Part shown: positions 16,762-55,268 of the stretch, one piece after another | How positions within the stretch are numbered: the first letter of the stretch is position 1 | How the letters are laid out: the number at the start of each line of letters is the position of its first letter | Notes under the pieces: generated by a model | Told to the model about the DNA's origin: nothing | Database searches by the model: none | What the model saw: only the letters and a program-made list of their open reading frames with translations | Position numbers and translations under genes: made by a program | Virus record (IMG/VR): IMGVR_UViG_3300036832_001686 | Location: 1-55,268 of that record | Reading direction: 5' to 3' (one strand) | DNA: 55,268 bases | Source of the DNA: a virus | Taxonomy: Duplodnaviria > Caudoviricetes

Positions 16762-16762
16762 A

Positions 16763-20458: not shown

Positions 20459-20503
20459 AATAGTTTGAAAAACATCTTGCGTTTTCAAATAAGGATTGTA
20501 TAC

Positions 20504-20875: not shown

Positions 20876-20877
20876 AA

Positions 20878-21739: not shown

Positions 21740-21750
21740 TGAATCTCCCG

Positions 21751-21757
21751 GTAAGTA
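21751..21757 (+). promoter_or_regulatory. GTAAGTA late motif
   Basis: 7 nt before GTG 21765. Confidence 0.7.
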
Positions 21758-21764
21758 AATCGGA

Positions 21765-24212: not shown

Positions 24213-24832
24213 TGATGGTCGGAATCTACGGCGCTATTCCTTTTGTGGGCGGATTCGGTACCGCAACACCGGTCCAGGAGATCAGCAAGAAACGCAGTGA
24301 AACCTACGCCAGGCATCAGCTGATCAACGGTCTGGATCTGATCGAATCGACCGGCTCGAAACCCATCGAGCTGGATTTCAAAATGCATTTCTGCGCTCCC
24401 TTCACCCTGGATCCGGCGGTGAGTATCTCGATGATTGAAGGCGCGCAAGCCGCTAAAATTCCAATGCCGTTGATGTTCAATGATTGCCCGGTCGGGCGCG
24501 GTCTTCTAACCATGTTTGTAATCGAGGAAGTCGGTTCACAGATGACCAAATGGACCTTCGGCAATCTGGCGGTTTGCTCGATCAATATCCGCTTACTGGA
24601 GTACTCCAACCCGCTAGCCATTGCCGGTCCGTTAAACGCGCTCTTAGGCGCTGGCGCAAACTTTATCAGTGGCCTAGGGGCTGGCATCGCCTCCGGTATC
24701 ACGAGCGCCGTGGGCGGGCTACCTGGGCCCTTCGGCAGTGCCGTAGCCAACGGGATTATTGGCATCACGGCCGCGGCACCGGCCACCATTGCCTCCGCTC
24801 AAAGTGCCGCCTTAGCTCTTACCGGACGTTAG
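24212..24832 (+). CDS. Tail protein (P2 gpU-like)
   Basis: YARHQLING...ESTG...IRLLEY, with an Ala/Gly-rich extension. Confidence 0.85.
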   Translation: MMVGIYGAIPFVGGFGTATPVQEISKKRSETYARHQLINGLDLIESTGSKPIELDFKMHFCAPFTLDPAVSISMIEGAQAAKIPMPLMFNDCPVGRGLLTMFVIEEVGSQMTKWTFGNLAVCSINIRLLEYSNPLAIAGPLNALLGAGANFISGLGAGIASGITSAVGGLPGPFGSAVANGIIGITAAAPATIASAQSAALALTGR

Positions 24833-25308
24833 TGTTCTCCAGGTTGGGAGTGGTAAAAAGGAATGTTTTTGCGTCTGTTTTGAGTTTGGGTCTTTTTATC
24901 AGCCCATCGAATATTCCAGGGGTAATAGCCTTCCCAAGGATTGATTCTATCTAGGGTCATTCCTTTAGGGCGATTGCCTATAAGATTTAAGACTCCCCGT
25001 ATAAAAATTTCTCCTTTACGCCATGATTCCCATATGGTGACAGGCGGATTTAGCCCGCCATACTCTGTATAACTTTTCGCCTTAGGATTGCAGCATCGTT
25101 GCGTCATGGCGTCCCAAAGCAAGTACAAAGGATGAAAACTCAAACCGTGTTTGTAACCGTACTTATGACCTTTCCCAAGCTGATTGCCTTTCGGAAATGG
25201 ATTATAAACGCGACCCATTCTACGTGGATTATTGAGCGGTTCACGTTTTCTTGCGGCACTCAAACTCGCACAGATTTCTGGTGTTCGGACGTAAACTCCT
25301 GAGGGCAT
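24829..25308 (-). CDS. Free-standing HNH homing endonuclease
   Basis: LYLLWDAMTQRCCNP...YGG...TLDRINP...NIRWA...QTQNRR. AT-rich and antisense to the tail operon. Confidence 0.88.
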   Translation of the reverse strand: MPSGVYVRTPEICASLSAARKREPLNNPRRMGRVYNPFPKGNQLGKGHKYGYKHGLSFHPLYLLWDAMTQRCCNPKAKSYTEYGGLNPPVTIWESWRKGEIFIRGVLNLIGNRPKGMTLDRINPWEGYYPWNIRWADKKTQTQNRRKNIPFYHSQPGEH

Positions 25309-25317
25309 ATATTTGCG

Positions 25318-25324
25318 GTAAGTA
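25318..25324 (+). promoter_or_regulatory. GTAAGTA late motif
   Basis: 10 nt before ATG 25335. Confidence 0.7.
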
Positions 25325-25334
25325 ACTATCAGAA

Positions 25335-25814
25335 ATGCCAAAGACCTATTCTGATATTCGGCTTCTGGTAAACAATGTAAAATTTTTTGTAGATGGCAAT
25401 TTTCAATTCAATATGTCAGCGCCAGCGAACTCGGTCGAATCCGTTGTACAGAATGTACTTAATATTCTGGATACGAAACTCGGCACCCAACCGCTCCAGC
25501 GCAGTTTCGGCCTGGATCAATCCTGGATCGGTTTACCCGGCAATTTAGGCACCTTGCAAGCCCAAGTCGCCATGGTGCTAGCCATCTCCATTTGGGAACC
25601 GCGCTTTTCGGCGACGAAGATCCAGTTCAGCCTGAACACCTCCGACATTCTCCAAGGCGTTTACTCCGTTTTTATCGAGGGGGTGGTCAACCTCGATCTG
25701 ATGATTACCCAACAGCTCTTTAGTGGTCCAGCTAACGCGCCGGTCTGGGTACTGGATGCGCCCTTCGACGGCACGAGCATCCCAACCGCGCAACAGGAGA
25801 CACTCACGCTCTAG
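25335..25814 (+). CDS. Baseplate wedge protein gpW/gp25-like
   Basis: VVQNVLNILDTKLGTQPLQRSFG...WEPR. Confidence 0.92.
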   Translation: MPKTYSDIRLLVNNVKFFVDGNFQFNMSAPANSVESVVQNVLNILDTKLGTQPLQRSFGLDQSWIGLPGNLGTLQAQVAMVLAISIWEPRFSATKIQFSLNTSDILQGVYSVFIEGVVNLDLMITQQLFSGPANAPVWVLDAPFDGTSIPTAQQETLTL

Positions 25815-25820
25815 TAAGTA
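25814..25820 (+). promoter_or_regulatory. GTAAGTA late motif
   Basis: 6 nt before ATG 25827. Confidence 0.7.
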
Positions 25821-37239: not shown

Positions 37240-37542
37240 GGTGTACCTAAAGTGTACCTTGCATCCCATTCCGCCGTTTAGATTTTCATTCGTAAGTCGT
37301 TGGGGATCAAGGCTTGCACCGTGCCGGAGTCGAACCGGCAACCTAATGATTAAGAGTCTCAAAATTACCCTCTGCCTATCCGGGACGATATGTGCCTTTA
37401 AATGTCGCTAAATGCCGCTCAATTGGCTTAAATAGAGGGAAAGCCAAGCGAACAGATAGTGATTTATCGGTTGACATCGGCCCAAATCGGACCTAATAGG
37501 ACGACATAGGCGAGACGAAAGGTGCACTAGGTAGGTGCACTT
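37240..37542. other. Phage attP region
   Basis: tRNA-derived core flanked by paired arm-type repeats GTGTACCT x2 (37241-37259) and AGGTGCACT x2 (37520-37541) in opposite orientation. Confidence 0.75.
37315..37358 (-). tRNA. 3' half of tRNA-Lys(CTT), att core (not a full tRNA)
   Basis: Minus strand GACT-CTT-AATCATTAGGTTGCCGGTTCGACTCCGGCACGGTGCA: anticodon loop, T-arm and 3' acceptor strand only. Confidence 0.85.
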
Positions 37543-37574: not shown

Positions 37575-37787
37575 ATGACTGACAACGAGATTATTGCAAC
37601 TTTAAAGCCCTGTCCGTTCTGCGGCTGTTCAGAGATTCAATGGGTAACGCATTATTTCAATAAGTGTTGCGCTGATCCGAACGTGCCAACGGTAGAGATC
37701 ATTTCTTGTACTAATCCAGCTTGCGGTGCGCAGATACGCCGGATCGAGATTGAGCAGGCGGTGAAGGTCTGGAACTACAGGCAATGA
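37575..37787 (+). CDS. Lar-family restriction alleviation protein
   Basis: LKPCPFCG...C..PACGA...AVKVWNYR. Confidence 0.8.
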   Translation: MTDNEIIATLKPCPFCGCSEIQWVTHYFNKCCADPNVPTVEIISCTNPACGAQIRRIEIEQAVKVWNYRQ

Positions 37788-39100
37788 AACAGCATTCCAA
37801 AACCACGGCGGAATATTGGCTCAGTCGCGTCTACTTCCACAACCAGGGGGGCAAAGTCGAAGCCGACTATTCGGTTTTGATTCAACACGACAAGCGCCGG
37901 GAACGTTTCCCGTTGCATACGTCCAACAAGCGCCAAGCTTCCGAGCTCGCCCGCGAGATTTACCGAACCCTGCAAAATGGCGGTTGGGATCTGACCATCG
38001 CCGTTTACAAGAAAGGCCAGACTATCGATGGTGACCTCACGGTCGGTCAATACCTCGATGCCGTGGCCCGAGTCTGGACTAAGCACGAAGCAACTCTGCA
38101 CAATTACACGCGCAGTTTGCGCATGATCGTGACGGAGCTTTTTAATCTGGATCCGGACAACCAACGCTTTAACTACAAGCATGCCGGCTCGGCCGCTTGG
38201 CGGGCGCGGACCGATGCCGTTTACTTGAGCGACATCACCACCGACCGGGTCAACACTTGGGCGCTCGGCTATGCCGGCCGAAACATCAAAACTCGCGGGC
38301 CTGGCGCAGCACCCGAGACCAATCACGTCGCGCTTAACCGGCGTCGCATTTCGGCGAATTCCTATCTGCGGACCGCTAAAAGCCTTTTCTCGCCCAAATT
38401 ATTGAAGCGTACCGGATTCAAGCTCGCGTCGATCCCGTTTAAGGATGTCGAGTTTTTCGGCGGCACCGATAGCCGCTACTTTAGCGATTTCGATATCCGG
38501 AAAGTTTTGACTGCGGCCCAAGCCGAGCTCGCGCCTTTTGACGCTGACGCTTATTCGGTGATTCTTTTGTCTGCTGTTGCCGGGTTACGCCGGGGCGAAA
38601 TTGATTTGCTGGAATGGCCCAGCATTGATTTCAAGCATGGCGCCATCCAATTACGGGTGACCGAATACTACCGACCGAAAACGCCGGATTCGTTGCGCCA
38701 GGTTCCTTTCAAAGCGCCTTGGGTTCTGGATTGGTTTAAGGCCAGGCGGACCGCCCAAGGCGAGCAGGCGCGCTTTGTGGTGGCGCCAGCCGCGCAGTAT
38801 CAGCCCGACCAGAAAACCGATTACTACCGCTGCGCTGATCTCTTGAGCAAAGTTTCGGCTTGGTTACGTGCCCGAGGCGTCAAAGCAATCCGGCCGTTGC
38901 ATACGTTACGCAAAGAAGCGGGCGCCGATATCGTGCGCCGGATGGGCTTGGTTGCGGGTGCGGCGTTCTTGCGTCACAAGACAACCGCAGTGACCGCAGC
39001 TCACTACACCGATTGGACAATTACAGAAACGCCAAGTTTCGTCGATGTCGGTCAAGAAGAAAAAAATATTATTAAATTTGCAGAAACCGACTTGACATGA
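37784..39100 (+). CDS. int: Tyrosine integrase
   Basis: GLRRGEI, PKT, HTLRK and LRH...TAAHY catalytic residues. Confidence 0.93.
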   Translation: MKQHSKTTAEYWLSRVYFHNQGGKVEADYSVLIQHDKRRERFPLHTSNKRQASELAREIYRTLQNGGWDLTIAVYKKGQTIDGDLTVGQYLDAVARVWTKHEATLHNYTRSLRMIVTELFNLDPDNQRFNYKHAGSAAWRARTDAVYLSDITTDRVNTWALGYAGRNIKTRGPGAAPETNHVALNRRRISANSYLRTAKSLFSPKLLKRTGFKLASIPFKDVEFFGGTDSRYFSDFDIRKVLTAAQAELAPFDADAYSVILLSAVAGLRRGEIDLLEWPSIDFKHGAIQLRVTEYYRPKTPDSLRQVPFKAPWVLDWFKARRTAQGEQARFVVAPAAQYQPDQKTDYYRCADLLSKVSAWLRARGVKAIRPLHTLRKEAGADIVRRMGLVAGAAFLRHKTTAVTAAHYTDWTITETPSFVDVGQEEKNIIKFAETDLT

Positions 39101-39249
39101 CCGTCGGCATTTAGCGGCGCTTATCGGCGCTTATCGACGCACATCCGCCATAAAAGGGCGACGGTTTACCTAGCGGCAACGCAGCACGTAACTGCATTAA
39201 AAATGCAAAAAACGCGCAAATTGCCCGATGTGGTAGAAGTAGAGTCGTT

Positions 39250-43456: not shown

Positions 43457-44018
43457 ATGAAAATTCATCCGGTAGCAGACCTCTTTCCTATGATGTCGGA
43501 TGACGAACTCACCGAGCTCGCCACCGACATTAAAGCTAATGGGCAAATCCATCCCATTATTATCGATAACGATATTATTATTGATGGTCGGAACCGGCTC
43601 GAGGCTTGCAATCGGGCTGGAATACAACCGACTTTTGCCGAGCTGAACGGCCAAGATCCGGTCGCGTTTATTCTCTCAGCCAATATTGCAAGGCGCCATC
43701 TTTCCAAGGGCCAACAAGCCATGGCGGTAGCGAAAGCGTTATTACTAAGTAATAAAACGCAAACTCAGGCGGCAAAACAGACGCAAGTAAGTCAAACCCG
43801 GATCGCACAAGCTTCGATCGTTCTGCAATACGCACCCGATCTAGCCGATGGCGTACTATCGGGCGCGCTCGCGCTCAACGTCGCCTATGAACAGGCGCAA
43901 AAACGTAAAGATCAAAGCAGCTCAACCGATGAAGCGTTAAAACGGTTGCACAAAGAATCGCCGGAATTAGCCGATCTGGTTGTGGAGGAACGGATGAGCT
44001 TAGGCGAAGCCGAGGCGG
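43457..44018 (+). CDS. ParB-N domain protein, N-terminal part (continues at 128..375)
   Basis: IHPVADLFPMM...DIKANGQIHPII...DGRNRL...NIARRHLSKGQ. Confidence 0.88.
43892..44018. repeat. 127-bp exact repeat, copy 2
   Basis: Identical to 1-127. Confidence 0.97.
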
Positions 44019-44255
44019 GATGCCCGCCCCGCCGAGTCCTTTTTCGGTCAGCACTAAATGCCGATCGAGAAAGAGTTCTCGCAGTGCCATACGGAAGAAT
44101 GAGAAATTAGTTTCATCCTTGCCGTAAGGCCCGGCTAATTGCTGTAGATCTTTCATTTTATAGAAAGCGCCATGACTAATCGGACCGAGCTCTTTCTCAA
44201 TCCGGTCCATGATTTGCAGCATGAACTCGTTTCGAGTTAGCAGTTCCTCGCTCAT
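44019..44255 (-). CDS. Hypothetical protein coupled to the RAMP-like gene, truncated at the junction
   Basis: ATGA overlap with 44252..44866; runs off at 44019. Confidence 0.65.
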
Positions 44256-44866
44256 GGTAAGACCTCCACTTCAAAACGCCCGTAGCGCGGCCGCCAATCG
44301 CATAGTCCGATATAAAACCCAGCATCGATAGCCGATTTAAGTAGAGCGTCCCCGTTCACCACGTTCGCATCGAATTTCAGTAAAAACTCGAGCACCCACG
44401 GAACGGGGAAAATTGGTCGGGTCCGCACAATTCGGCTTTGATTAACCCGAACTAACTTCGTGAAAACGAAGTTGCTGTTACCATCTGCCCACATTTTTTC
44501 CTTGGTCCGCGGGCCTTGGTAATCGAGCCGGATCACGCCCGCGTCACCGGTTTTACCATCACCCTCCACAAAAACGGCCAATCCGACCTCTTTTCCATAT
44601 TTGGACTTTTTAGCCCCGGCGGTGATGGTAGCTAATATATTATCGGTTGGGACCACTGGCCCAAATTTTTCATCCCAATATAAACTTCCTTGCCACTCCG
44701 CCTTAGCTAAATCGACCAAATCTTCATCGGTCTTTTTTCTTTTGGAGCTCAGCGCCTTGATGCGCCTAGCTGCTGGGTTCAGTGGATTAGCTAAAGTACC
44801 TTGGTGATGGATTAGATCACTGACTCCGGTAAACCGGAGCCGCATCGTTTCTAAACTAGATTTCAT
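44252..44866 (-). CDS. Stand-alone RAMP/Cas7-like protein (Vipr-like)
   Basis: LRFTGVSDLIHH, PVVPTDNILATI, RIVRTRPIF..W and C-terminal Gly loop AGFYIGLCDWRPRYGRFEV; adjacent to GGY/NN arrays. Confidence 0.75.
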   Translation of the reverse strand: MKSSLETMRLRFTGVSDLIHHQGTLANPLNPAARRIKALSSKRKKTDEDLVDLAKAEWQGSLYWDEKFGPVVPTDNILATITAGAKKSKYGKEVGLAVFVEGDGKTGDAGVIRLDYQGPRTKEKMWADGNSNFVFTKLVRVNQSRIVRTRPIFPVPWVLEFLLKFDANVVNGDALLKSAIDAGFYIGLCDWRPRYGRFEVEVLP

Positions 44867-44905
44867 TTTCTATCTTTCTTTCTTTCTTTCTGTTCGAGCC
44901 TCACG

Positions 44906-45045
44906 AGCTCGCTACTGCCGACTAACAATTCTGTTAGCCGGCAGTGTGCGAACTAAATCGCCCATGCCTTGCCTTGCCGCGCCGTGCCTGGCCCTGCCTC
45001 GCCTTGCCTCGCCGCGCCTTGCCCTACCAAGCCGCGCCAAAATCC
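44906..45045 (-). ncRNA. Guide-like RNA unit A: (NN-GGY)x15 + AT-GGG + hairpin
   Basis: Perfect 5-nt register 44961-45040; 3' hairpin TCGCACACTGCCG-GCTAACAG-AA-TTGTTAGT-CGGCAGTAGCGA. Confidence 0.8.
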
Positions 45046-45062
45046 TAGAGTCTGCTTTCAGC

Positions 45063-45209
45063 AGCTCGCTACTACCGTTAGCAGTTGCCAACGGCAGTAT
45101 GCGAACCGTTATGGTTTCGCCCATGCCTTGCCCCGCCAGGCCTCGCCTCGCCCTGCCGTGCCAAGCCTCGCCGCGCCCTGCCAAACCCGGCCTCGCCAGG
45201 CCAAAATCC
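45063..45209 (-). ncRNA. Guide-like RNA unit B: (NN-GGY)x16 + AT-GGG + hairpin
   Basis: Perfect 5-nt register 45120-45204; 3' hairpin TCGCATACTGCCG-TTGGCA-AC-TGCTAA-CGGTAGTAGCGA. Confidence 0.8.
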
Positions 45210-45263
45210 AAATTTTTAACTGACCTTTTTTCGTAAGCTTTTTTTAGGTCCGTGCGTTATTTA

Positions 45264-45473
45264 TTAGGGATCAAGCTCATTGGCTGTTAGCTCTGCCAAG
45301 CGGTCGATCAACTCTAAGGCCCCGGCCAAAGTCTCGAGATCCAAGCTCGAATCGAAGAACACCCGGTCGCGGCACCCGGCAACAAACGCGCGGCCAGTGA
45401 GTCCCCTGGCTTTGGCGCGCTCGATTCCCGCCTCGAGCAGCGCGACTAATTCGTTTTGTTTGGGAGTCATCAT
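45264..45473 (-). CDS. Hypothetical protein
   Basis: Co-oriented small ORF in the minus-strand run. Confidence 0.55.
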   Translation of the reverse strand: MMTPKQNELVALLEAGIERAKARGLTGRAFVAGCRDRVFFDSSLDLETLAGALELIDRLAELTANELDP

Positions 45474-45493
45474 GTTAGTTACTGCTTAGTTTT

Positions 45494-45730
45494 TTAATTG
45501 CTCTCGAACCGATCAGCTTCGAGCCCGCGCTGACCAACCTGGAGGAACTCCACCAGCTCGGAGACATCGCCTTTGGTGCTCACGAAATAGTCGAAAATCA
45601 TGTAACCAATCTTTTTTTCGACCGTGTCCCACTCTTCGCTTCCCAGCCAATCTAGGGCCAGAGCTTCGAAGGCCTGCCGTTGTTTCAACCGGGCTTCTTC
45701 TATAGGGTCCATATTCTTAGGAGTCTGCAT
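45494..45730 (-). CDS. Hypothetical protein
   Basis: Co-oriented small ORF. Confidence 0.6.
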   Translation of the reverse strand: MQTPKNMDPIEEARLKQRQAFEALALDWLGSEEWDTVEKKIGYMIFDYFVSTKGDVSELVEFLQVGQRGLEADRFESN

Positions 45731-45857
45731 TGATAGCTAGTCGGCTATTTTGGTTAGTTGCGGGCGGCCCGGCCAAATGCAGAAATGCGCGTCCGTCCGC
45801 TGCGCAGGTTTTTCCGACAAGCATGGTCACTCTGCGCTTGACCGTGTCCGCCTACTC

Positions 45858-46184
45858 TCACTTCCCGCCGGCGGCTGGCGGGTAAGCTTTTACTTTCGCC
45901 AGTTTATCTAAAATTCGATCCAGCGTAGCTTCCAGCTCTTCCAGGTCGGTCCCATCGAGAACGATAGACACCAGTTTATCGACGATGTTAGTTGTCTGGT
46001 TCTCTAATGCTTCCAGATCACTGGGGGTGTTTTCCTCAATGTATTTTAGGTTCCCGGTGATATTATTTGTCTGTTCGTTTAATGCTTCCAGATCACCAGG
46101 AGTATTTTCTTCGATGTACCGCAGGCCAACGGCGATATTACCTGTCTGTTTGTTTAGTTCGTCGAGATGCTGCCGCTCATTCAT
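45858..46184 (-). CDS. Coiled-coil protein with about three 25-aa repeats
   Basis: (D)LEALNEQTNNITGNLKYIEENTPS-type units. Confidence 0.7.
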   Translation of the reverse strand: MNERQHLDELNKQTGNIAVGLRYIEENTPGDLEALNEQTNNITGNLKYIEENTPSDLEALENQTTNIVDKLVSIVLDGTDLEELEATLDRILDKLAKVKAYPPAAGGK

Positions 46185-46554
46185 TTGTACTCTCCGCCGT
46201 TATGCGAAGTTCCCGCCGAGGGGCATCATCGACGATCCCAACAAATTCGCAGTGAGTGTCACGCAGACAATCCTGCCCGTTGTCGCCACCCTCAAAAATA
46301 ATTGCCCAAACCTCTGAAAATCCGTGTTCGAGCTGACATCGCCGGATTTGGTCTGGACTCCACGAATGCGGGACCGTGATGTCGATATCCAACTTGCACC
46401 GGAAACGCGCGACCTTGGTTACGACGACGCAATCGCGAGCGTGCGGAGTACCCACTAACTGCTCGCAATAAAAACACGCATCCGACGGTCCGGCTGGCCG
46501 GATACCGTCGTCTTGTGGATCCACTAAAGGCCAATTCGAATCGCCTGTGCTCAT
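46177..46554 (-). CDS. Cys/His-containing hypothetical protein
   Basis: IRPAG..DACFYC...HARDCV; overlaps both neighbours. Confidence 0.65.
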   Translation of the reverse strand: MSTGDSNWPLVDPQDDGIRPAGPSDACFYCEQLVGTPHARDCVVVTKVARFRCKLDIDITVPHSWSPDQIRRCQLEHGFSEVWAIIFEGGDNGQDCLRDTHCEFVGIVDDAPRRELRITAESTNE

Positions 46555-46796
46555 TGCGCTTTGGCCAGTTGAGCCCTCTGAAACCGAGCACCCCCAGGCA
46601 GGAACGAATGGATAAAATCGTCGAGCGACTTTTTGTTAATCAACCGAACGCCTTTGCGTTTCCCGGGCTTAACAATATGGACGCTCAAGACCTCTTCGGT
46701 CATGCATTGCCGATAGATCTCCGAAATGGATAGCCCGGTCCTGGCGCTCGCGTCTTGGAGCTTCTCCCAGTCGGGTTCGACGAATTTTCTGCTCAT
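46551..46796 (-). CDS. AlpA/excisionase-like HTH protein
   Basis: LQDASARTGLSISEIY...GVRLINKKSLDDFI. Confidence 0.78.
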   Translation of the reverse strand: MSRKFVEPDWEKLQDASARTGLSISEIYRQCMTEEVLSVHIVKPGKRKGVRLINKKSLDDFIHSFLPGGARFQRAQLAKAQ

Positions 46797-46914
46797 GAAC
46801 AATATTGAGCACAAATTCGCAATCCGAAATAGTCGGCCTCAGAAAGATTTTTTAAGAGCACCTATTTCGCCTGAAATTGGTGGCCTTGAAGAAAAAGCTA
46901 GAGGCCCACTATTT

Positions 46915-47475
46915 TTAACGCTTGGTCGGTCTGCCAGCTCGAGCCGGCTTAAGCGCGCCTAAGCCCGCTTTTCGAAGAATTCGGGTCCAAGCGTGTTTTT
47001 TCGGAACAGCTTTTCCGGCCGCTTTTAAAATCTCTTCGGCTCTGGCTCTCACTTCGCGTTTGGTCGGCCAGTCATTCTTAGATTCACCGATAAAGAGAGC
47101 GTCAAAGACTTGAAGCGCCGCCCGGATCCCGTGCATTTCCGGTTCGGGCCAACTATCGTAATCCATGACTTTGAGAAGATTTTCAAAGTAAGCGCGGTCA
47201 CCGTCGAAAGCGGCTTTTAGAAGCCGGGCCTTGAATTTTTCGATATCTGCGGCGCCGCTTTCCAAAACCTGGCGATAGAATGGGGAATCGGCAGAGAACT
47301 TTTCGAGTAACCCAGGATATCCTTTTTCATAGTCGCGCCAATCTTCGAGCTGTTCCCAAATATCGGCAGGACTGTCCAGCGGCTGCTCAAAGTTAAGATT
47401 GTCGATATTGTACTTTTGGTACGCATCGAGATAGCCAGGCGGATATTCTATCTTCTTGTACTTTTCGTCTTCCAT
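46915..47475 (-). CDS. Hypothetical protein, possible C-terminal HTH regulator
   Basis: 186-aa ORF right after the integrase; WPTKREVR...WTRILRKAGL. Confidence 0.65.
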   Translation of the reverse strand: MEDEKYKKIEYPPGYLDAYQKYNIDNLNFEQPLDSPADIWEQLEDWRDYEKGYPGLLEKFSADSPFYRQVLESGAADIEKFKARLLKAAFDGDRAYFENLLKVMDYDSWPEPEMHGIRAALQVFDALFIGESKNDWPTKREVRARAEEILKAAGKAVPKKHAWTRILRKAGLGALKPARAGRPTKR

Positions 47476-47489
47476 GGAACCGCGAACCC

Positions 47490-48653
47490 CTATTGGGCTT
47501 TGGGCAACCGCGGGATGAGTTGAGTGGCGGCTTTGATTGCGTCCAGATCCTCGTGGATATAGCGGTCGACTACGCCCCCGGCGGCGTGATTGGTGACCCG
47601 GCGGGTGATCTCCCGAAGGGCCGCCCCGTTGAATACATTGCTGGCCGCGGTGTGCCGGAAACTGTGAAACGAGAGCGCCCTGACCGAACGGCCTTTGCCT
47701 GCGTTGCCTTGACGCAAGAACCGCTTTTCAATACCCGCCTTGTCGAGTAACGCAACGAACGTATTCGAAAGCCCGTGCTCGCCATTCAACGCCTTGTCGG
47801 CCAACGTGGGGAATACCGGTGCGTCAGCGGCCTCCTCGGGTGTGGGCCGAACCGCTAGCCAATCAAGAAAGTCAGAGTGCAACCCAAGCACCGCCTGGGC
47901 CTTGGTCTTGCGCTCACGAAAAACGACGATCCCGTTCGCAACATCGAGGTTCGACCATTTAAGGCTCTTGCAATCACCGAGTCGGGCCCCGGTCCCGTAC
48001 GCGAACAGGATCACCCCTTGCCAATCAGAATCAGCGACCGCGAGCAGAGCGGCGATTTGGTCGCCCGTAAAGGTCTCTTTACTGAGCGACTCGCTCCTTT
48101 CGGGCGCGGTCGCCATGACCGGGTTGAAGCGGATCTTGCCGACCTTGCGGGCCTTCTCGAATGGGGCTGACAAATATTTGCGGATCAGCTTATTGATCGT
48201 CGCCGGGGATCGGCCCTCTTTGCGTAGGAGCCGGATAAATCCTTCAATATCGGCTGTGGTAATGGAATCCAGACGCCGGGTTTGGGCGCCACGTCCGCCC
48301 AGGTAGGCTAAAAATTCCTCAACAGCCTGGGCATAGGCTTTATAGGTTGAAACTTCAATCTGGCCCTCTTTAGAGCCGAGCCATTCACCCAACCAGCTTC
48401 CGACACTAACGAAGTCGATTCCTGAGGAGCCGATCCGTTCGAGGGTTTCATTTAAGATTTCTAAGACCCGGGATTGGGAAAGCCGCCCCTCTGCTGCCGC
48501 ATCTTCGGCACTCTGCCAGGCCTCGGCGATAACCTTCGCCTTGGGCTTATCCCGGGTCTTAGTCGAACGCCAGACCCGGCGTCCGTCGCCGAGAGTGAGA
48601 ACTGCGTACCAGGTGCCTTTGGGGGATCGAGTGTTGCGGTGAACCGAAGCCAT
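47490..48653 (-). CDS. int: Tyrosine integrase
   Basis: TGARLGD, KTK, SFHSFRH and H...YIH. Confidence 0.93.
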   Translation of the reverse strand: MASVHRNTRSPKGTWYAVLTLGDGRRVWRSTKTRDKPKAKVIAEAWQSAEDAAAEGRLSQSRVLEILNETLERIGSSGIDFVSVGSWLGEWLGSKEGQIEVSTYKAYAQAVEEFLAYLGGRGAQTRRLDSITTADIEGFIRLLRKEGRSPATINKLIRKYLSAPFEKARKVGKIRFNPVMATAPERSESLSKETFTGDQIAALLAVADSDWQGVILFAYGTGARLGDCKSLKWSNLDVANGIVVFRERKTKAQAVLGLHSDFLDWLAVRPTPEEAADAPVFPTLADKALNGEHGLSNTFVALLDKAGIEKRFLRQGNAGKGRSVRALSFHSFRHTAASNVFNGAALREITRRVTNHAAGGVVDRYIHEDLDAIKAATQLIPRLPKAQ

Positions 48654-48655
48654 AG

Positions 48656-48858
48656 ACTCACTAACACGATTCACTACCGAGCAACTTAATTCCAGAACAT
48701 TCTAGAACATTCTTCTCTCTCGGAATCAGGCACTTACAGAGGGGTGAATAAGGTACCGAGGGTTCGAATCCCTCCCCATCCGTAGGTGCTTAGAATGAGG
48801 CACTTACAACAAATCAGAGCCAGAAAATCGCCAATTCGCTAACAGATTCACTAACAGG
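48656..48858. other. Satellite attP region
   Basis: TCACTAAC-like arm repeats paired on each side, GAATSAGGCACTTACA direct repeats (48723, 48793), and tandem AGAACATTCT. Confidence 0.75.
48753..48782 (+). tRNA. 3' end of a tRNA (Ser-like), att core (not a full tRNA)
   Basis: GTACCGAGGGTTCGAATCCCTCCCCATCCG: T-arm plus 3' acceptor strand. Confidence 0.75.
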
Positions 48859-48969
48859 CGTTTTGAAATCGGCTTGAACTAACTTGAAATCCCTCCTGCC
48901 CTGCCGAAGTTTACCAGGCCGGCCAAGCTCGGCTAGTCTGTCGCTGTGCCAACGCTTTGCCAATGAAAG

Positions 48970-49179
48970 ATGCCTCGCAAGATCCGAGACCTGATCAAGG
49001 ATTTAAAGTCGGCTGGTTGGTCACAGGTTGCCGGGGGCAAGGGCTCCCACCGGAAATTCAAGCACGACAAATTCCCTGGGGCGGTGCTGATTCCGGGTCA
49101 CGATAACGACGACTCTAAACCCTACCTAGAAAAGCAAGTTAAGAACGCGGTTAAAGGCCGAATGGTACGCAAGCCATGA
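48970..49179 (+). CDS. hicA: HicA-family toxin
   Basis: LIKDLKSAGW...GKGSHRKFKH...VLIPGH. Confidence 0.92.
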   Translation: MPRKIRDLIKDLKSAGWSQVAGGKGSHRKFKHDKFPGAVLIPGHDNDDSKPYLEKQVKNAVKGRMVRKP

Positions 49180-49400
49180 GCGAAACCAAAAAAATCACCA
49201 TGTGGGTTCAATGGAGTGATGAAGACGGTGCCTTTCTTGGCTACTGCCCGCAGTTCTTCCCTTACGGCGCGGTCTGTGACGGTCACACCCAAGCCAAGGC
49301 CGTAACCAAACTTGCTCGACTAGTCCGGGAAGAATTGGAAGAACGCGGACAACTCCCTAAACCGCTTACGAAAGGGCGAAAGGCCCGAGTCGCACACTAA
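49176..49400 (+). CDS. hicB: Short HicB-family antitoxin
   Basis: VQWSDEDGAFLGYCP...GHTQAKAV...LPKP; ATGA coupling to hicA. Confidence 0.85.
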   Translation: MSETKKITMWVQWSDEDGAFLGYCPQFFPYGAVCDGHTQAKAVTKLARLVREELEERGQLPKPLTKGRKARVAH

Positions 49401-49430
49401 GCTTCTGCCCTGCCGAAGTTCACCAGGTCG

Positions 49431-49437
49431 GTAAGTA
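49431..49437 (+). promoter_or_regulatory. Helper-type GTAAGTA late motif
   Basis: CGGTAAGTA, 9 nt before ATG 49447 in front of the satellite TMP gene. Confidence 0.7.
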
Positions 49438-49498
49438 AGCTTTGAAATGACCGAGAATTTAAACAAGGGGGCCCGCTGGAACGAGGCGGGATAGAGTC

Positions 49499-51946
49499 AT
49501 CACTCGCGATCTACAAGAGTTAAAGATCCTAATTTCGGGGCATACGGACGCCTCGGTCGGTGCCGCCAGCGCTAAAGTGGTCGGCGAAGTCAAAAAGCTG
49601 GCAGACAGTCTAGACCGGTTGGCGGTAATCGAAAAACAGATTGGCCAGGTCAACAACGCGGTCGCGGAGGGATTCAAGAAAATGGGGAGTGGCGCTCGCC
49701 AAGCCGAAGCTGAACTGACCGGCTTTGAGGCTAGCCTGAAACGAGTTAAAGAAATTGCAGCCGGCGTCTTTAGCGGCGAAGCGCTCTGGGAAGGATTTAA
49801 GGGCGGCGTCGAGATGGTCAAGGAAGGTATCGGGGATGTCGTGGAACTGCTGCAGAACGCATCGAAAGCAGCCTCTGACTTTGAGATGACGCAGAAGGGA
49901 ATTGGTAATCTGCTGCGCGATCAGCCCTATGCCAACATGCTGATCAAGAACTTGCGGGAAACCGCTGTCGGCAGTCCTTTTGCGCCCGAGACGCTGTACG
50001 GCGCCGCTCGAGCGCTGACAGGGCGCGGCATGGACAAGAGTCTGCTCGAGTCGCGCACGAATGAGCTGGGCGACATCGTGAGCGGTATTGGCGGTGGGCA
50101 AGAGATGATGGAACGGCTGACGCTCGCATACGGCGAGGCGTTCAGCGAGCACCTCGTCAACAAGCGAATTCTCAACCAGTTCGCCCAGGCTGGCGTCAAC
50201 ATCACGTCCGAGATCATGAAGGCTTATGGCATGGACCCCACGGATGCCAACGTGCAGAAATTCCAAAAGATGGTGCATGATAAACAGATCACCTTCACCG
50301 ATGTCGATAAAGCACTCTACACTTTGACGCACGGCATGGGGATTTATGCGGACGCGATGCAGAAACACGCGGAGACAGCGCAAGGTATCTGGACGGGATT
50401 CATCGCGAGGCTGAACTTCATCGAAGTCGATCTCGGCGGCATCGTTAACGACATCTCGATGACGTTGCTGAACCTGCTCGAAAAGAGCGGCTTTCTGAAA
50501 GCATTCGACACCTGGCTGCAAGGGATCCGCACCATAGCGGACAGCATGACCGAGTATTTCAAGCTGTTTAACGGCGAAAAGATTATCCATTTTTTCCAGA
50601 CCGTCGGAGACGGCATCCAGCAGTTCATGGTGAAGCTGGGTTTAATCTCCAAAAGTACAGAATCAAAATATCTCACTAGCGATATCTACGCCTTTGCCGG
50701 TCAGCGTCCCGAGACCTTTGGTAAACAACGGCCGCAACTGGGCCGGGTAACGCCAGCCTGGAAACTGGGCGGAGAATTCGAATCCGAGACAATCCTGCCG
50801 GCCGCACCGACACCGACGGTGGCGGATAAATTGACCAAATGGTTAGACGATCTCTCTAACACTCTGGCCAGCATTCATACGGAGCAGGTCGAAGATTTCC
50901 TGCAAGGTTTGGTGACGGTATCGACCGCAATCGGCGGAGTCAGTATGGATTTCTTTGGTGAAATTGCTGATTTCTTCAAGGACATGTACACCTTCGGGCA
51001 ATGGTGCGGCGGACCCGGCCACGATATGGTGGTTGGGTTTTTCAACGCCATCAAAGATTTCTGGAACAACATTGTTCAATGGATCTCGGATCACATCCCG
51101 CCCTTTCTGAAATTGACGGCGCCCTCGGATCAAGAGAAACGAATGAACGAAGCGGCGGATAAAGCCCGCAGCACCGTCGATATCGACCAGGAGACAGTCA
51201 ACCAGCGGCAAAGCGACCTGGACAATAAGATGTTGTTGGGCACCCAAGACCAAATTGATCACGCTAAATCCGCTTTAACCCTGGCCCAGGACAAGTTGAA
51301 AGTTGATACCGCGCTCGCCGCGGCGGCAGAGTCACTCACCAAAGCGTTCGAAGGTCATAGCCCCGGGCTGATCCCGGCAACCGAGACTGCGACCGCGGCG
51401 CTAGATGCATTTGCCCAGGCCATGCTCTCTATGCCCCTTGGAGCAGCCACGGGGGGCTTTGGTGGTGCGGTCGCTGGCGGTGGTGCTGGCGTCACTGAAT
51501 ACGGGCCGAGCATCGATCCGCCCGGGTCTGCTGACTACGATTATAACTCGTATCACCGTATCGGTGCGTGGCCTGGAAAGACAGGGCCCTTGAGTCCTGG
51601 TGATGTCGCGCTTGGCTACGGCGCGCAAGCTCATTACGGGGTGCAGCCCGGGCAATGGTTCACTGACGATCAAGGGCGCCACGTTCGCTTCGCCGATCGC
51701 AGCGGGAGCAAGAATCCGATGAACGAGGACATTTTTCGCCTCGCTGCTGGCGGCATTGTGCGACGTCCGACGACTGCGCTAATTGGCGAGTCTGGGCCCG
51801 AAGCGGTGGTGCCCTTACGCGGTGCCGGCGGTATCGGTCACACTTTCAATGTGACGGTTAACACTGTCGCCGGTGACGGCTACGCAATCGCAGAGATGGT
51901 GATGAATGCACTGCAGGAGCTCACGGAGCGAACCGGCTCCGTGTAA
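49499..51946 (+). CDS. Tape measure protein paralog of 16763..19129 (start uncertain)
   Basis: Colinear end to end. Homology begins at ATC 49499 (ITRDLQELK versus MTRDLQELK), upstream of the GTG called at 49577. Confidence 0.9.
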   Translation: MTRDLQELKILISGHTDASVGAASAKVVGEVKKLADSLDRLAVIEKQIGQVNNAVAEGFKKMGSGARQAEAELTGFEASLKRVKEIAAGVFSGEALWEGFKGGVEMVKEGIGDVVELLQNASKAASDFEMTQKGIGNLLRDQPYANMLIKNLRETAVGSPFAPETLYGAARALTGRGMDKSLLESRTNELGDIVSGIGGGQEMMERLTLAYGEAFSEHLVNKRILNQFAQAGVNITSEIMKAYGMDPTDANVQKFQKMVHDKQITFTDVDKALYTLTHGMGIYADAMQKHAETAQGIWTGFIARLNFIEVDLGGIVNDISMTLLNLLEKSGFLKAFDTWLQGIRTIADSMTEYFKLFNGEKIIHFFQTVGDGIQQFMVKLGLISKSTESKYLTSDIYAFAGQRPETFGKQRPQLGRVTPAWKLGGEFESETILPAAPTPTVADKLTKWLDDLSNTLASIHTEQVEDFLQGLVTVSTAIGGVSMDFFGEIADFFKDMYTFGQWCGGPGHDMVVGFFNAIKDFWNNIVQWISDHIPPFLKLTAPSDQEKRMNEAADKARSTVDIDQETVNQRQSDLDNKMLLGTQDQIDHAKSALTLAQDKLKVDTALAAAAESLTKAFEGHSPGLIPATETATAALDAFAQAMLSMPLGAATGGFGGAVAGGGAGVTEYGPSIDPPGSADYDYNSYHRIGAWPGKTGPLSPGDVALGYGAQAHYGVQPGQWFTDDQGRHVRFADRSGSKNPMNEDIFRLAAGGIVRRPTTALIGESGPEAVVPLRGAGGIGHTFNVTVNTVAGDGYAIAEMVMNALQELTERTGSV

Positions 51947-52162
51947 TTGATACAACTAACCGACGTCGGTTAGTTTCCATCACGGTCGACGTATCCCGAA
52001 AGTCTGCTCGGGTGCTTGGCGGCTCAGAGGGCTAAAGCGAAAGTTAGTAATGATAGGCGCTTTAACTTGAGCAGGCTTTTCCTCCTGCGCCCAGGAGGCC
52101 AGCAGTTCCTCTGCACGTTTTCGCAGCAAACGGTTAGAAAGTTTCCGAGACATAACTTGTTA

Positions 52163-53320
52163 TTAATTGCTCACGCCCGAATTTGTCGAGATCGCCCAGG
52201 CTTGCGTGTGCCGGAACTTAACATCTACCCAGCTGTCCAAAATAAAGCGAACGCGCCCGCTGGTACTTTGGCTATACGGATCCACAAAAACTTCAGTGCC
52301 GCCCCAGTGGGCAAAAATCGCATTCGAGAAATCTCCAAAGAGCACTTGGTTAGTGGCTCCGATCTGGTTAGTTCCGATAAAATCCCAGCCAGCGATACCT
52401 GCGTCATTCGCGTAAAAGTTTGGATAATAGGTGGTCGCGCCTCGTGCATCCTGACGTGCGTATCCCTTCCACGCGGCTAATGTGCTCGGCGAACAAACGA
52501 ACCGGGTGGTTGCAGGGTCTAGATCCACATCGCACGCGCCGGCGACATTCGCCTCGAATTGCAAGACTGCGGCCCACGTCGGCGGCCCGCCTGTTGCGAA
52601 CGTCACCGAGGGGGCTAGCTCGCCATAAACGCTCGTCCCGGGCGCGGAACTCGGGATGGTAAACAATCCCACAGGCTGGTTGTTAGCCGGCCCAGTGCCC
52701 CATAACCCTGCGTAATCTTCAGCCACTGCGATGCTCCTCAACAAATCGTTGGCGACGAACTGTTGGGCGCTCAAAGCGCTTTGAGTTAACAATTGTCGAC
52801 TGACCACCGCAACCGAGTTCAATCTCTTGGGGGACAAAACAATTTGTGCGAAAGTTCGGTCCGAACTGGTCGCGGGGCTGATCTCGGGAAGCCACGCCGA
52901 AGTGGAGGCCGAGGTCTGACCTGCAATCGCCAAATCACCCTGAAGATTGTCGAGAAAAACGGCCCCGGCTCGACCAAAGACCATCTTTTTTCTGAGCAGG
53001 TCGATCAGTCGCGGCGACACATCCGTCTGGATAAGCGAACCACCGGCGCCAGGCGTACCTGCCACGGCGTCGCGCATCACCGCTCGCCCGATCGGTGTGT
53101 CTCTTAACGAAAAGCAGAGACACGAATCGGGGAGCCAAATTGCGTTCGGATTTTTTTTCTGGCGCCCTTCAGATAGAGCAACGTCAACCGCTTTTTCCAG
53201 GCCGCTCAATCGCTGATCGCCCGCCTCGCGCAGAGCTTTGCACAAATCGTAACGCTGCAGTTCCTTTGCGGGGATCGACGGGAACGGAGCCAGAGTCAGG
53301 GGCTTGGTTTGATAGTCCAT
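52163..53320 (-). CDS. Major capsid protein paralog lacking the protease and most of the scaffold region
   Basis: RYDLCKA, RLSGLE, RDAVAGTPG, LLRKKMVFGRAGA, NQIGATNQVLFG and the C-terminal STNSG are shared with the helper capsid. Confidence 0.9.
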   Translation of the reverse strand: MDYQTKPLTLAPFPSIPAKELQRYDLCKALREAGDQRLSGLEKAVDVALSEGRQKKNPNAIWLPDSCLCFSLRDTPIGRAVMRDAVAGTPGAGGSLIQTDVSPRLIDLLRKKMVFGRAGAVFLDNLQGDLAIAGQTSASTSAWLPEISPATSSDRTFAQIVLSPKRLNSVAVVSRQLLTQSALSAQQFVANDLLRSIAVAEDYAGLWGTGPANNQPVGLFTIPSSAPGTSVYGELAPSVTFATGGPPTWAAVLQFEANVAGACDVDLDPATTRFVCSPSTLAAWKGYARQDARGATTYYPNFYANDAGIAGWDFIGTNQIGATNQVLFGDFSNAIFAHWGGTEVFVDPYSQSTSGRVRFILDSWVDVKFRHTQAWAISTNSGVSN

Positions 53321-53802
53321 TTTTGGTGACTTTGTTAGGTCGATTTGACCGCCTAAACCGTACACCCTGGACCACGGGCTTGACAGCACAAAAGATGTCG
53401 CTTGTCCAGAGCTGCGCCGTCTCTGATACTAACGCCATGTTTTCCTGGCGCAGAGCTTTTGCGGCCCTCTTGCCGCCGCATAAAAAAACTGGCGAGCAGG
53501 TGACGCGACCGCCGTTGATGTTGTCACCGCTCTTCTCCTCGCCGTACAGGAGCGAACCAGTTGGTTGGTTTACCCATGTTGCAGGCCTCGATGTCACCGG
53601 CAGCAACACCAACTCCGGACTGTTCAACCGTCGCCCTCGTTCGTGGGAGACTCAGCAACAAGTCCCGAATTGGGTAGGAGCGGGACAGCACTCACCGCCA
53701 GCGCCGCTTTTGCTGGACGCGAATCAAGCCCCAGGATTCTATCGGCCTCGCATTTCGGTTTTCACAACGCCGGCTAAGCTCGGCCGTCTCTGGAAATGGT
53801 AA

Positions 53803-54036
53803 TTGCAAGACTCAACCCGACGAACACTGCTGTGCAGCGCTGCTGAGGGCGATGTCTATTTCGCTCGGGCCGAGCCGTGGCGAGGCTGCTGGTTTGAACT
53901 GCGCTCGAACACGCCTCCAGGAGTATGCTTGGCCACCTATTGTTTGCCGGGAACACAGCCGGCGTGGTTAGGAGACCGTCCGCCTGCGCCCGAGACGTGG
54001 GTGCAGGTTGCCCGTGAGCGGCGACTGATCCCTTGA
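53803..54036 (+). CDS. Small hypothetical protein, paralog 1
   Basis: WxELR-x7-C-x3-YxLP...APxxWVQ, shared with the next ORF. Confidence 0.55.
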   Translation: MQDSTRRTLLCSAAEGDVYFARAEPWRGCWFELRSNTPPGVCLATYCLPGTQPAWLGDRPPAPETWVQVARERRLIP

Positions 54037-54076
54037 CAGCGCGACTCCTCGGGGATTACACAATTGCTTCTGCGGT

Positions 54077-54319
54077 ATGGATGCTCCCCCTCATCTCTGC
54101 ACCCTCATCTCGCGAACGCATTTTCTGACCGTCAAGGACCGCCACGGCTGGCAATGGTTTGCCTACTTTTGCACATCTGAAATCACACAAGAACGCTGGA
54201 TTGAACTCAAGGGCAGCGAGGACCGACAAGGCTGCACCAAGCGCTATTGGTTGCCCGATGACCAGCACGAGCTCGCGCCCCCGGCGTGGGTGCAAAAGAT
54301 TCCGCGCCAACTGCTCTAG
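54077..54319 (+). CDS. Small hypothetical protein, paralog 2
   Basis: WxELK-x7-C-x3-YxLP...APxxWVQ. Confidence 0.6.
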   Translation: MDAPPHLCTLISRTHFLTVKDRHGWQWFAYFCTSEITQERWIELKGSEDRQGCTKRYWLPDDQHELAPPAWVQKIPRQLL

Positions 54320-54609
54320 ACGATGATCGGCAGCGTCTGCGGCAGTAATTGATAGAGCGTGCTCGCTAAAGAAAAAAGGCTAGTTAATCGTCCACTAGCA
54401 CACACTAGTTTCCGACCAACTAGCCCAAAAACCCAAATATCTAGAACCAGATACTTCTTCTTGAGCCTACTACAACAACGCACCGCAGACAAAGGAATAC
54501 CGGCAGCGAGAGAACGCCCAGATAACGTCAACAACGGTGCTCACTCCTGGCCGTCATTTTCTGTGTGCCGTGCAGCGGGTACCGTTTGCCAGAAATTTAA
54601 AAGTGCTAC

Positions 54610-54807
54610 ATGAAATTTGATCAATCGAATACGGTCTATATCGGTGATGCCGTTTACGCGACTTTTGATGGTTGCGGCATCGAATTACGACTTAACAGCC
54701 ACAAGAGCGAATGCCTCATCTATCTTGAGCCTGAGGTGATGGCAACCCTGGTCGAATTCTGGCGGAACGCGAGCGAGGTCGAAAATTCGAAAGTTCTATT
54801 CAAATAG
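54610..54807 (+). CDS. Small phage-type hypothetical protein
   Basis: YIGDAVYATFDG...IYLEPEV. Confidence 0.65.
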   Translation: MKFDQSNTVYIGDAVYATFDGCGIELRLNSHKSECLIYLEPEVMATLVEFWRNASEVENSKVLFK

Positions 54808-54872
54808 CAGTTGTTCAGCAAAAGTTGCTGGAAGTTGAAAACCTCGCGCCAAAACGAAGTTTTGCACTGCCT

Positions 54873-55130
54873 TCACTTTTCACGCAGACTTTTGAGCAAA
54901 TCGTCGGTCGATTCGAACACCGGCAAATTTCCACTCTCGGCTTCTTCGAGCGCCAGGTGAAGCCGCTCTTCATTTGCATTTGATCCCAAAAGATAAGCAG
55001 TTTCGGCATCGCTATTTGTTTTGTGTGAAACATTCTTAGCCGGCAGCTCGAATTTTTCTCTTAGCTTCTTAAAAAATAGCGGCGCAGCTTTCGGCCGTCC
55101 GTTTTTGCGCTGACTTTTTGGGCGCTTCAT
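54873..55130 (-). CDS. Orphan YefM C-terminus-like antitoxin mimic
   Basis: ETAYLLGSNANEERLHLALEEAESG resembles YefM ETAYLLRSPANARRL. Confidence 0.6.
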   Translation of the reverse strand: MKRPKSQRKNGRPKAAPLFFKKLREKFELPAKNVSHKTNSDAETAYLLGSNANEERLHLALEEAESGNLPVFESTDDLLKSLREK

Positions 55131-55227
55131 TTCTTACCGCTTAGATAATTCGCACAAAATATCGCGGTCTTCGTGCATGATCTCCGAGGGTCCCTATTTT
55201 GGCCGCCGGCAAGTTTTGCACTCACTC

Positions 55228-55268
55228 AAAAAATCTCACATTCGCAAAAAATTCGTGGTCCTCAGACC
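55228..55268 (-). other. cos-like terminus; core GGTCTGAGGACC
   Basis: The last 12 nt form the dyad GGTC-TGAG-GACC; 29 of 41 positions identical to 3084-3124. Confidence 0.7.

Follow-up and report, generated by a model that had tools for sequence, protein, structure and literature searches.

A candidate satellite-like integrative element with paralogs of a myophage's capsid and tape measure genes, found in a concatenated viral record from metagenomic data

Among phage satellites, cf-PICIs carry a whole head module, consisting of terminase, portal, protease, capsid protein and connectors. Ccm of the cos-type SaPI SaPIbov5 is described as a homolog of the capsid protein of its helper (PMC8569155). 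The PLEs of Vibrio cholerae are described as building chimeric tails with their own tape measure protein (TMP), tail chaperone and BhuB, and the same source notes putative tmp genes in PLE-like elements and in some cf-PICIs (PMC12987554). A preprint presents the EPIPs of Mycolicibacterium aichiense as small elements with a major capsid protein (MCP), a TMP and an integrase, and few other virion genes (PMC12822802). Mini HK97-fold “twilight zone” entities, which average 8.75 kb, have been described from metagenomes: they carry an integrase, sometimes an excisionase, sigma-like and replication genes and an HK97-fold capsid gene as the sole structural gene; they are reported to lack terminase, portal and tail, and one has an open reading frame (ORF) annotated as a tape measure (PMC13669383). 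Here, we describe an analysis of IMG/VR record IMGVR_UViG_3300036832_001686, whose full length of 55,268 bases we call the window. Positions 44019–55268 (the tail of the record) carry an integrase gene (int), an attachment (att) site and genes for a TMP and an MCP, designated TMP' and MCP', both homologous to genes of the myophage (phage 1) that precedes them in the record.

The tail resembles each of these systems in part. Like SaPIbov5, as described, it is an int-bearing island with a capsid-fold gene diverged from the capsid protein of one phage and without a large terminase or portal of its own in the part seen. Its integrase, host and capsid lineage are different, however; it has a tape measure gene as well, and it shows no cos site or size redirection. 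As in the PLEs, the tape measure of a putative satellite is homologous to that of a contractile-tail helper. However, PLE TMPs are reported to be about 20% identical to that of ICP1, to be of another length and to come with a chaperone, whereas TMP' is 75% identical to the phage 1 TMP, has the helper's length and lacks a chaperone gene. No Rta-like gene was recognized in the window element, nor does the element combine its TMP with a chaperone and baseplate hub, the set through which PLEs are described as substituting tail parts. With EPIPs it shares capsid, tape measure and integrase genes in one element from which most virion genes are absent. The EPIPs, which were obtained as particles, are described as having a serine integrase together with a small terminase, head-tail adaptors and a scaffold; the window element, in contrast, has a tyrosine recombinase and shows none of those other genes. 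It differs from the “twilight zone” entities as reported in that its relative (G001, below) measures 16.1 kb and in that a candidate helper could be identified by the kinship of two genes. Like cf-PICIs, it has its own capsid protein, and some cf-PICIs are reported with putative tmp genes; no terminase, portal or protease was found in the part seen or in the related element, which sets it apart from cf-PICIs as defined above. The element is placed only under the broad satellite concept, on its integrase and att site. The first-pass annotation of this DNA had proposed a new type of satellite. An integrative element with int, attP and capsid and TMP paralogs of one phage was indeed found, but it is not new in principle, since satellite capsid homologs, satellite TMPs and MCP-only elements have been published. 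What is new is at most another integrase/att family, from soil, in which both genes are closest to one phage and a helper-length TMP' occurs without a chaperone gene.

The record was classed as linear and rated 100% complete in IMG/VR. A repeat search of the window showed that bases 1–127 are 100% identical to 43892–44018. A de Bruijn assembler with k = 127 leaves an exact 127-base overlap when it closes a circle. Because bases 1–127 recur exactly at 43892–44018, positions 1–43891 are a closed circular myophage of 43,891 bp, namely phage 1. Read evidence came from the k = 31 contigs of one public soil metagenome run, which may be the source sample. One of these contigs goes from 44018 into the window at 128 and onward, closing the phage 1 circle. 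The “matching cos-like end” of the first-pass annotation is therefore this exact 127-nt assembly overlap. The tail begins exactly where the closed circle ends, and the bases just before that point (43567–44018) form a single 452-nt unitig with a depth of 36.1, versus 14.6 and 14 for the phage contigs to its left and 12.1 (43989–48779) and 11.0 (48753–51679) for the tail. Another contig of the run enters 43567 from a foreign 30-mer that occurs nowhere in the window. From the depths, the circle-closing contig and the foreign left flank, it follows that 44019–55268 is a different molecule, into which the assembler crossed from phage 1 via 452 identical bases. The record is a concatenation; what had been taken for a satellite beside its helper is an assembly join through the shared unitig.

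The 452-nt segment is present at 100% identity in phage 1 and in the tail molecule. Because its depth exceeds that of phage 1 and the tail together (about 26), a third genome in the run probably also holds it, with different flanks. The ParB-like piece that it contributes to the tail molecule has an in-frame TAG in the foreign left flank and a replaced C-terminus, lies antisense to the int operon and is a dead gene fragment. No match was obtained in viral contigs for the foreign left-flank 30-mer, the last 39 nt of the window or the first 34 nt of the shared segment, nor in metagenome contigs for the last 39 nt, and consequently the element could not be closed.

The core of the att site corresponds to the last 33 nt of a tRNA-Ser gene on the plus strand (48750–48782); the start of int is about 75 nt away. 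In three contigs of the run, the core is preceded by the tRNA anticodon arm and half of the variable arm; read by eye, the anticodon is GGA. Repeated arm motifs occur on both sides of the core, namely GAATSAGGCACTTACA at 48723 and 48793 and ATTCRCTAACA-type motifs at 48654/48668 and 48834/48846. The sequence AGGCACTTACA, which flanks the core, was dropped as an arm site on its own because its reverse complement resembles the GTAAGTA motif described below, and arm homology to an integrated relative was used instead. That relative, which encodes the closest relative of the integrase in IMG/VR (80% identity), lies in G001, a 64,318-bp “provirus” in which an exact 24-nt direct repeat of the core at 47397 and 63491 bounds a 16,094-bp element. 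The tRNA that precedes the left site of G001 is incomplete (52 nt). We aligned the 100-base flanks of the cores in the window and G001, using 300 shuffles. The right arm of the window matched the inner arm of the G001 left site, attL (z = 6.4, 0/300 shuffles), and the left arm matched the inner arm of the right site, attR (z = 7.5, 0/300). Against the outer flanks, the right arm did not match that of attR (z = 1.1, 48/300) and the left arm matched that of attL more weakly (z = 3.1, 1/300), which was attributed by eye to a shared tRNA-like stretch. The window therefore holds a P arm, core and P' arm, as in the excised form or in a joint between two tandem members, and the attP of the first-pass annotation is upheld by the homology of both arms to the inner arms of the integrated relative. 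Because both inner arms are homologous to those of G001, hicAB, TMP' and MCP' belong to a member of the element family and not to a host flank.

A myovirus prophage with tail genes, a lambda-E-type capsid (PF03864), portal, terminase and replication genes occupies roughly the first 46 kb of G001, and the 16.1-kb element lies directly behind it. The largest ORFs of the element are those of the helicase (500 aa), int (388 aa), the MCP (383 aa) and the primase-like protein (376 aa); no terminase-sized or portal-like gene and no tail genes were found in it. The terminase and portal of G001 are at least 15 kb from the element's capsid gene, in the separate myovirus module. A 388-aa ORF to the left of attL is not significantly similar to integrase. 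Both the window and the G001 element carry int, the 186-aa protein gene, the xis-position gene and then phrog_4652 in the same order, and phrog_4652 is in the same operon in G001 (E = 1.9e-11). A lone HK97-type capsid gene is near the P' arm in both; in the window its orientation is opposite, and hicAB and TMP' lie between. With the int/att core, arms, operon order and lone capsid gene all found, the tail is assigned, by comparison of genes and sites, to a G001-type family of tRNA-Ser integrative elements, which is defined within the present analysis.

The int gene annotated at first pass was confirmed as a tyrosine integrase by its PF00589 and phrog_1 matches (Table 1). On the minus strand, the order of transcription is int, the 186-aa ORF, the 87-aa ORF, four small ORFs, a gap containing GCCNN repeats, phrog_4652 and a 126-aa ORF. 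The 87-aa ORF had been called xis-like; its position, conserved beside int in G001 (44% identity), agrees with this, but no family match was found. Contigs of the run differ over the GCCNN arrays, where a joint links 45172 to 44997 and contigs end loosely at 44991 and 45023; we can only guess that the arrays are an origin or a binding array. Recombination probably cut the gene that the 126-aa ORF represents. The 108-aa ORF (45858–46184) contains 2.3 copies of a 75-nt tandem repeat (45983–46156), which give it a repeated peptide. Over 44019–55268, Pfam and PHROGs named only int, HicA, TMP, MCP and phrog_4652, and the only ORFs of at least 300 aa were int, TMP', MCP' and a 326-aa frame antisense within TMP'. 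Rfam gave no match at gathering score in the window and only two chance-level matches in 44019–55268 (E = 0.11 and 0.14). The RNA-guided module once attributed to the tail was not recovered: there was no credible Rfam match and no large ORF able to encode an RNA-guided nuclease.

To the right of int are, in order, the att site, hicA with an overlapping ORF, TMP', a palindrome and then, on the opposite strand, a 57-aa ORF and MCP'. The hicAB pair looks like a cassette inserted between the P' arm and TMP'. TMP' and the phage 1 TMP are identical at 592 of 790 residues (75%) and are 789 and 788 aa long, respectively. Among 5.8 billion proteins, the phage 1 TMP was the closest relative, followed by one with 44% identity over 42% of the length. 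TMP' scored 35.5 bits against PF20155, below the cut-off of 41, and matched six PHROG families annotated as TMP; the phage 1 gene lies between the phrog_166 tail-protein gene, in the chaperone position, and the baseplate genes. By its PHROG matches and its orthology to the phage 1 TMP, TMP' is a predicted tail tape measure paralog. The two genes are homologous at the DNA level from exactly codon 1 to the stop codon. The ratio of nonsynonymous to synonymous substitution rates (dN/dS) was 0.14, with dS at 1.07, and fell to 0.07 in the first 26 codons. Conservation is highest at the two ends of the protein, and the middle has diverged. Neither a tail chaperone gene upstream nor baseplate genes downstream of TMP' were found; hicAB and a mini-ORF lie upstream and the terminator-like palindrome downstream.

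The motif GTAAGTA occurs upstream of TMP' at 49431–49437. There are 13 copies in the window versus 2.06 expected, a number reached in 0 of 100 shuffles. Eleven are on the plus strand of the phage 1 structural region (6941–25820), seven of them 13–17 nt before an ORF start; the motif may be a leader of late genes or an unusual signal for initiation. Most genes in that region are without a Shine–Dalgarno sequence. Just as the mini-ORF in the tail stops next to codon 1 of TMP', the phage 1 TMP start abuts the stop codon of an upstream frame. The helper-type late motif reported at first pass was thus present upstream of TMP' but absent upstream of MCP'.

MCP' scored 110 bits against PF05065 (cut-off, 24.2), covering profile positions 1–274 of 280, and was identical at 188 of 390 positions (48%) to residues 336–720 of the 720-aa phage 1 fusion protein, its closest relative among the same 5.8 billion proteins (next, 36%). 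No protease domain or remnant was found in the tail or upstream of MCP', and no portal or terminase beside it; MCP' has no GTAAGTA and no recognizable ribosome-binding signal. TMP' and MCP' converge on a perfect 22-nt palindrome, likely a two-way terminator. The first-pass description of two convergent structural genes, paralogs of phage genes, accordingly holds (75% and 48% identity). A tblastx comparison of 44019–55268 with 1–44018 detected no structural homolog other than the TMP and capsid genes. Relatives of MCP' or TMP' were searched for in viral contigs, and none showed a conserved pair; MCP' had no relative in metagenome contigs, and neither the TMP alignment nor int had one in genome contigs. 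The 1.2-kb stretch beyond MCP' had no match in phage or plasmid collections. Within it, local folding of 54290–54514 gave z from −3.6 to −4.4 against a control minimum of −3.2; as a special RNA this stretch was rejected, a hairpin and T-run being visible by eye near 54375–54430 on the minus strand. An identification of the 85-aa ORF as the C-terminus of a Phd/YefM antitoxin was dropped, as no family search supports it.

To see how often a capsid gene stands alone, we scanned with four aligned capsid proteins and obtained 71 loci, of which 64 had at least 3.5 kb of upstream sequence and seven were set aside. Homologs of the phage 1 portal or protease lay upstream on the same strand in 46/64. 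A further 16 had, on that strand, an upstream ORF of 527–577 aa, which is terminase-sized, and 13 of these 16 also had one of 397–422 aa, judged by size only. The two loci with neither were the G001 element and an IMG/VR contig of 16,096 bp (L043), and both carry int and a primase. These data suggest that a capsid gene without a head module goes with elements of the int-plus-primase kind. Positions 1–11404 of L043 contain two diverged capsid genes (68% protein identity), separated by an integrase and a DnaG-like primase. A 224-nt segment, 98.7% identical in its two copies, comes after each capsid gene; the arrangement looks like two tandem mini-elements of roughly 8.6 kb.

Table 1. Coordinates and characteristics of features in the window and in the G001 element (window positions unless G001 is named).
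Feature	Positions	Strand	Evidence or remark
Tail
126-aa ORF cut at the junction	43875–44255	−	First 79 codons tail-specific, last 47 in the shared segment; coding score 0.011 per codon
phrog_4652 early phage protein	44252–44866	−	E = 1.9e-50; family in 130 phage records
Two arrays of period-5 GCCNN repeats	44938–45213		In a 400-nt intergenic gap; repeat search; polymorphic in the run
Four small ORFs of the int operon (69, 78, 108, 125 aa)	45264–46554	−	No family above threshold; coding score positive for 3/4
87-aa ORF, excisionase position	46551–46814	−	G001 homolog 44% identical, next to int there too; no family match
186-aa protein next to int	46915–47475	−	G001 homolog 34% identical; no Pfam or PHROGs match
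Tyrosine integrase (int)	47490–48674	−	PF00589, E = 1.3e-14; phrog_1, E = 1.4e-42; 80% identical to the G001 integrase
attP	48654–48860		P arm 48654–48749, core 48750–48782, P' arm 48783–48860
30-nt direct repeats bracketing hicA and partner	48893–48922, 49402–49431		90% identical; 2 matches, 0 expected
hicA	48970–49179	+	HicA_toxin, E = 3e-14
74-aa ORF in hicB position	49176–49400	+	Overlaps hicA; no HicB match
15-codon mini-ORF	49447–49494	+	16 nt from the first base of GTAAGTA; stops 4 nt before TMP' codon 1
TMP'	49499–51946	+	Codon 1 at 49499; first common start GTG 49577, giving 789 aa; homology to phage 1 TMP
Perfect 22-nt palindrome	51954–51975		Between convergent TMP' and MCP'
57-aa ORF just downstream of MCP'	51980–52153	−	No relatives found; coding score −0.075
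MCP', lone HK97-type major capsid gene	52163–53389	−	PF05065, E = 1.8e-31; 408 aa from GTG, 385 aa from ATG 53320
1.2 kb, no frame with phage-like coding potential	53390–54609		Coding scores; sign of decay
65-aa ORF	54610–54807	+	Homolog (39% identical) in the myovirus part of G001
85-aa ORF	54873–55130	−	No family above threshold
Last 166 nt	55103–55268		Separate unitig, depth 20.7 in the run; another repeat, where the contig breaks off
G001 element
Whole element	G001 47397–63514		Loci L012, L006, L016, L017
73-aa ORF			First from the left att site
Capsid protein, 383 aa			Only PF05065 capsid gene of the record, beside the att site; 32% identical to MCP'
281-aa protein	G001 49427–50272		Next to the capsid gene; 45% identical over 117 residues to the phage 1 306-aa protein
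Small ORFs and HNH endonuclease
Helicase (AAA_25), 500 aa; RepB-primase-like protein, 376 aa
ParB_N protein; phrog_4652 protein
DUF2786/DUF7168 and DUF3102 proteins
xis-position homolog, 186-aa homolog, int (388 aa)			Order shared with the window
Phage 1 and joins
First copy of the 127-nt overlap closing the circle	1–127		Exact repeat and run contig from 44018 to 128 onward; assembly signature, not a cos site
Small terminase	3583–3996
Large terminase	3980–6037
Head-tail joining protein			
Portal	7557–9176
720-aa protease-capsid fusion	9177–11339
Sheath; tube-position protein; phrog_166 tail-protein gene			phrog_166 gene in chaperone position
TMP, 788 aa	16763–19129
Baseplate and fibre proteins
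Integrase-family gene	37784–39100
PD-(D/E)XK nuclease; ParB-like gene			ParB-like gene spans the closure point
452-nt shared segment	43567–44018		Codons 37–187 of the phage 1 ParB-like gene; depth 36.1, foreign loose end before 43567

As a whole, we tentatively read 44019–55268 together with the 452-nt segment as a satellite-like member of the G001 family, excised and dependent on a helper that resembles phage 1, and we give this reading somewhat less than an even chance. The tie to the helper is suggested by several points: TMP' and MCP' are closest to phage 1 proteins, 452 nt are 100% identical, both molecules were found in the same run at similar depth, dN/dS is 0.14 and the GTAAGTA leader is kept. 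No large terminase, portal or tail genes were found in the 11.25 kb seen or in the 16.1-kb relative. In such an element, Int would integrate it into, and excise it from, a tRNA-Ser gene, the attP being the form seen here. Replication would be by a primase and a helicase encoded in the unseen part, as the G001 relative suggests. The helper would supply the terminase, portal, protease, sheath, tube, baseplate and fibres. Because the protease domain that is fused to the helper capsid protein is absent from MCP', MCP' would be matured in trans, and it could co-assemble with the helper capsid protein or replace it, like Ccm. TMP', with its helper-like ends and diverged middle, would be built into helper tails, like the tape measures of PLEs. 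The 452-nt segment, being identical to phage 1, is a candidate packaging signal only. A fuller version, in which a soil satellite substitutes its own shell protein and tail ruler for those of its helper and the 452-nt ParB-like piece is a cis-acting packaging or partition site copied from that helper, seems doubtful to us.

Several points weigh against a helper-dependent satellite. Only 11.25 kb was seen, both ends are repeats, and terminase, portal or tail genes may lie beyond them; in those 11.25 kb we found no replication gene, small terminase or recognizable packaging site. The family has only one close relative by integrase (80%), the other 16 matches in the alignment of int against viral contigs being 21–23% identical. 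The G001 element has no TMP and its capsid gene is oriented opposite to MCP', and no relative was found in which TMP' and MCP' are conserved as a pair. The phage-like codon score of MCP' is 0.082 per codon versus 0.235 for TMP'. Similar depth in one run, possibly the source sample, is weak evidence of co-residence, and the attP junction would also arise between two family members in tandem. The remaining points are signs of decay: codon 1 of TMP' is ATC, not ATG, the 44018/44019 junction interrupts both the 126-aa ORF and the ParB-like piece, and 53390–54609 lacks coding potential. Such signs would fit a defective or decaying member of the family, which may still excise and in which recombination with phage-1-like phages left TMP' and MCP' as inert relics; so would the lack of a ribosome-binding or GTAAGTA signal at MCP', the resemblance of hicAB to an inserted cassette and the inversion of MCP' relative to the G001 layout. 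Relics of this kind, however, would hardly be expected to keep both ORFs intact over 789 and 408 codons or to show a dN/dS of 0.14 in TMP' that is low in the first 26 codons too. The breakpoints, moreover, coincide with gene borders, where a palindromic terminator is shared, and a lone capsid gene by the att site recurs in the intact-looking G001 element while being rare otherwise (2/64 loci). We regard decay as a rather unlikely explanation.

The alternative that the tail is a fragment of a complete temperate phage with this int/att, whose structural module is unseen and to which TMP' and MCP' are extra copies (morons or decoys), is improbable. In an ordinary phage, TMP' would be expected to have a tail chaperone gene upstream or baseplate genes downstream, and MCP' to adjoin portal and protease, as in 62/64 loci of its family; neither was found, and the int module has a single close relative, a 16.1-kb element that lacks a virion module. 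Nevertheless, the element is cut at both ends, phrog_4652 and this type of integrase occur in ordinary phages, and a homolog of the 65-aa ORF sits in the myovirus part of G001.

Two family members in tandem at tRNA-Ser, with the int operon from one, hicAB, TMP' and MCP' from the next and the attP-like site as their joint, are a quite remote alternative. A P-core-P' joint is what a tandem array produces, in G001 an element sits behind a partial tRNA and beside another prophage, and L043 shows two related mini-elements in tandem; however, no second copy of the core was found in the window, and TMP' and MCP' would still sit inside a family member. It is very improbable that a further misassembly within the tail joined int and TMP'/MCP' halves that are not one molecule: the k = 31 contigs break at the 33-nt tRNA core, overlapping by 27 nt, and none covers 51950–54613 (a hole that proves nothing), but the core is crossed by the original contig, each arm has its counterpart in an inner arm of the G001 element, and depth is 12.1 on one side and 11.0 on the other.

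Phage 1 itself showed some additional features. Its integrase-family gene is flanked by a 32-nt inverted repeat (37386–37417 and 39105–39136; 78% complementary) that abuts a tRNA-Lys(CTT) gene at 37315–37386 on the minus strand. Positions 6024–6944, which lie between the terminase and the head-tail joining gene, encode a 306-aa protein; it has a weak Sigma70_r2 match below the cut-off, as does the 281-aa protein of G001. The gene directly after the capsid gene (11379–12008) contains seven copies of a 30/33-nt repeat.

The practical lesson is that a record rated “100% complete” hides a closed phage and 11 kb of another molecule, and an internal copy of the first 127 bases of a contig is a warning sign of such concatenation. 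If the satellite reading of the tail is true, an uncultured satellite has been paired with a named candidate helper by comparison of genomes. One element would then carry both a capsid and a tape measure gene derived from its helper, in a lineage far from staphylococci, vibrios and mycobacteria. Substitution of head and tail parts would be recurring, combinable strategies of satellites, and MCP-only mini-elements would be linked to ordinary tailed-phage helpers.

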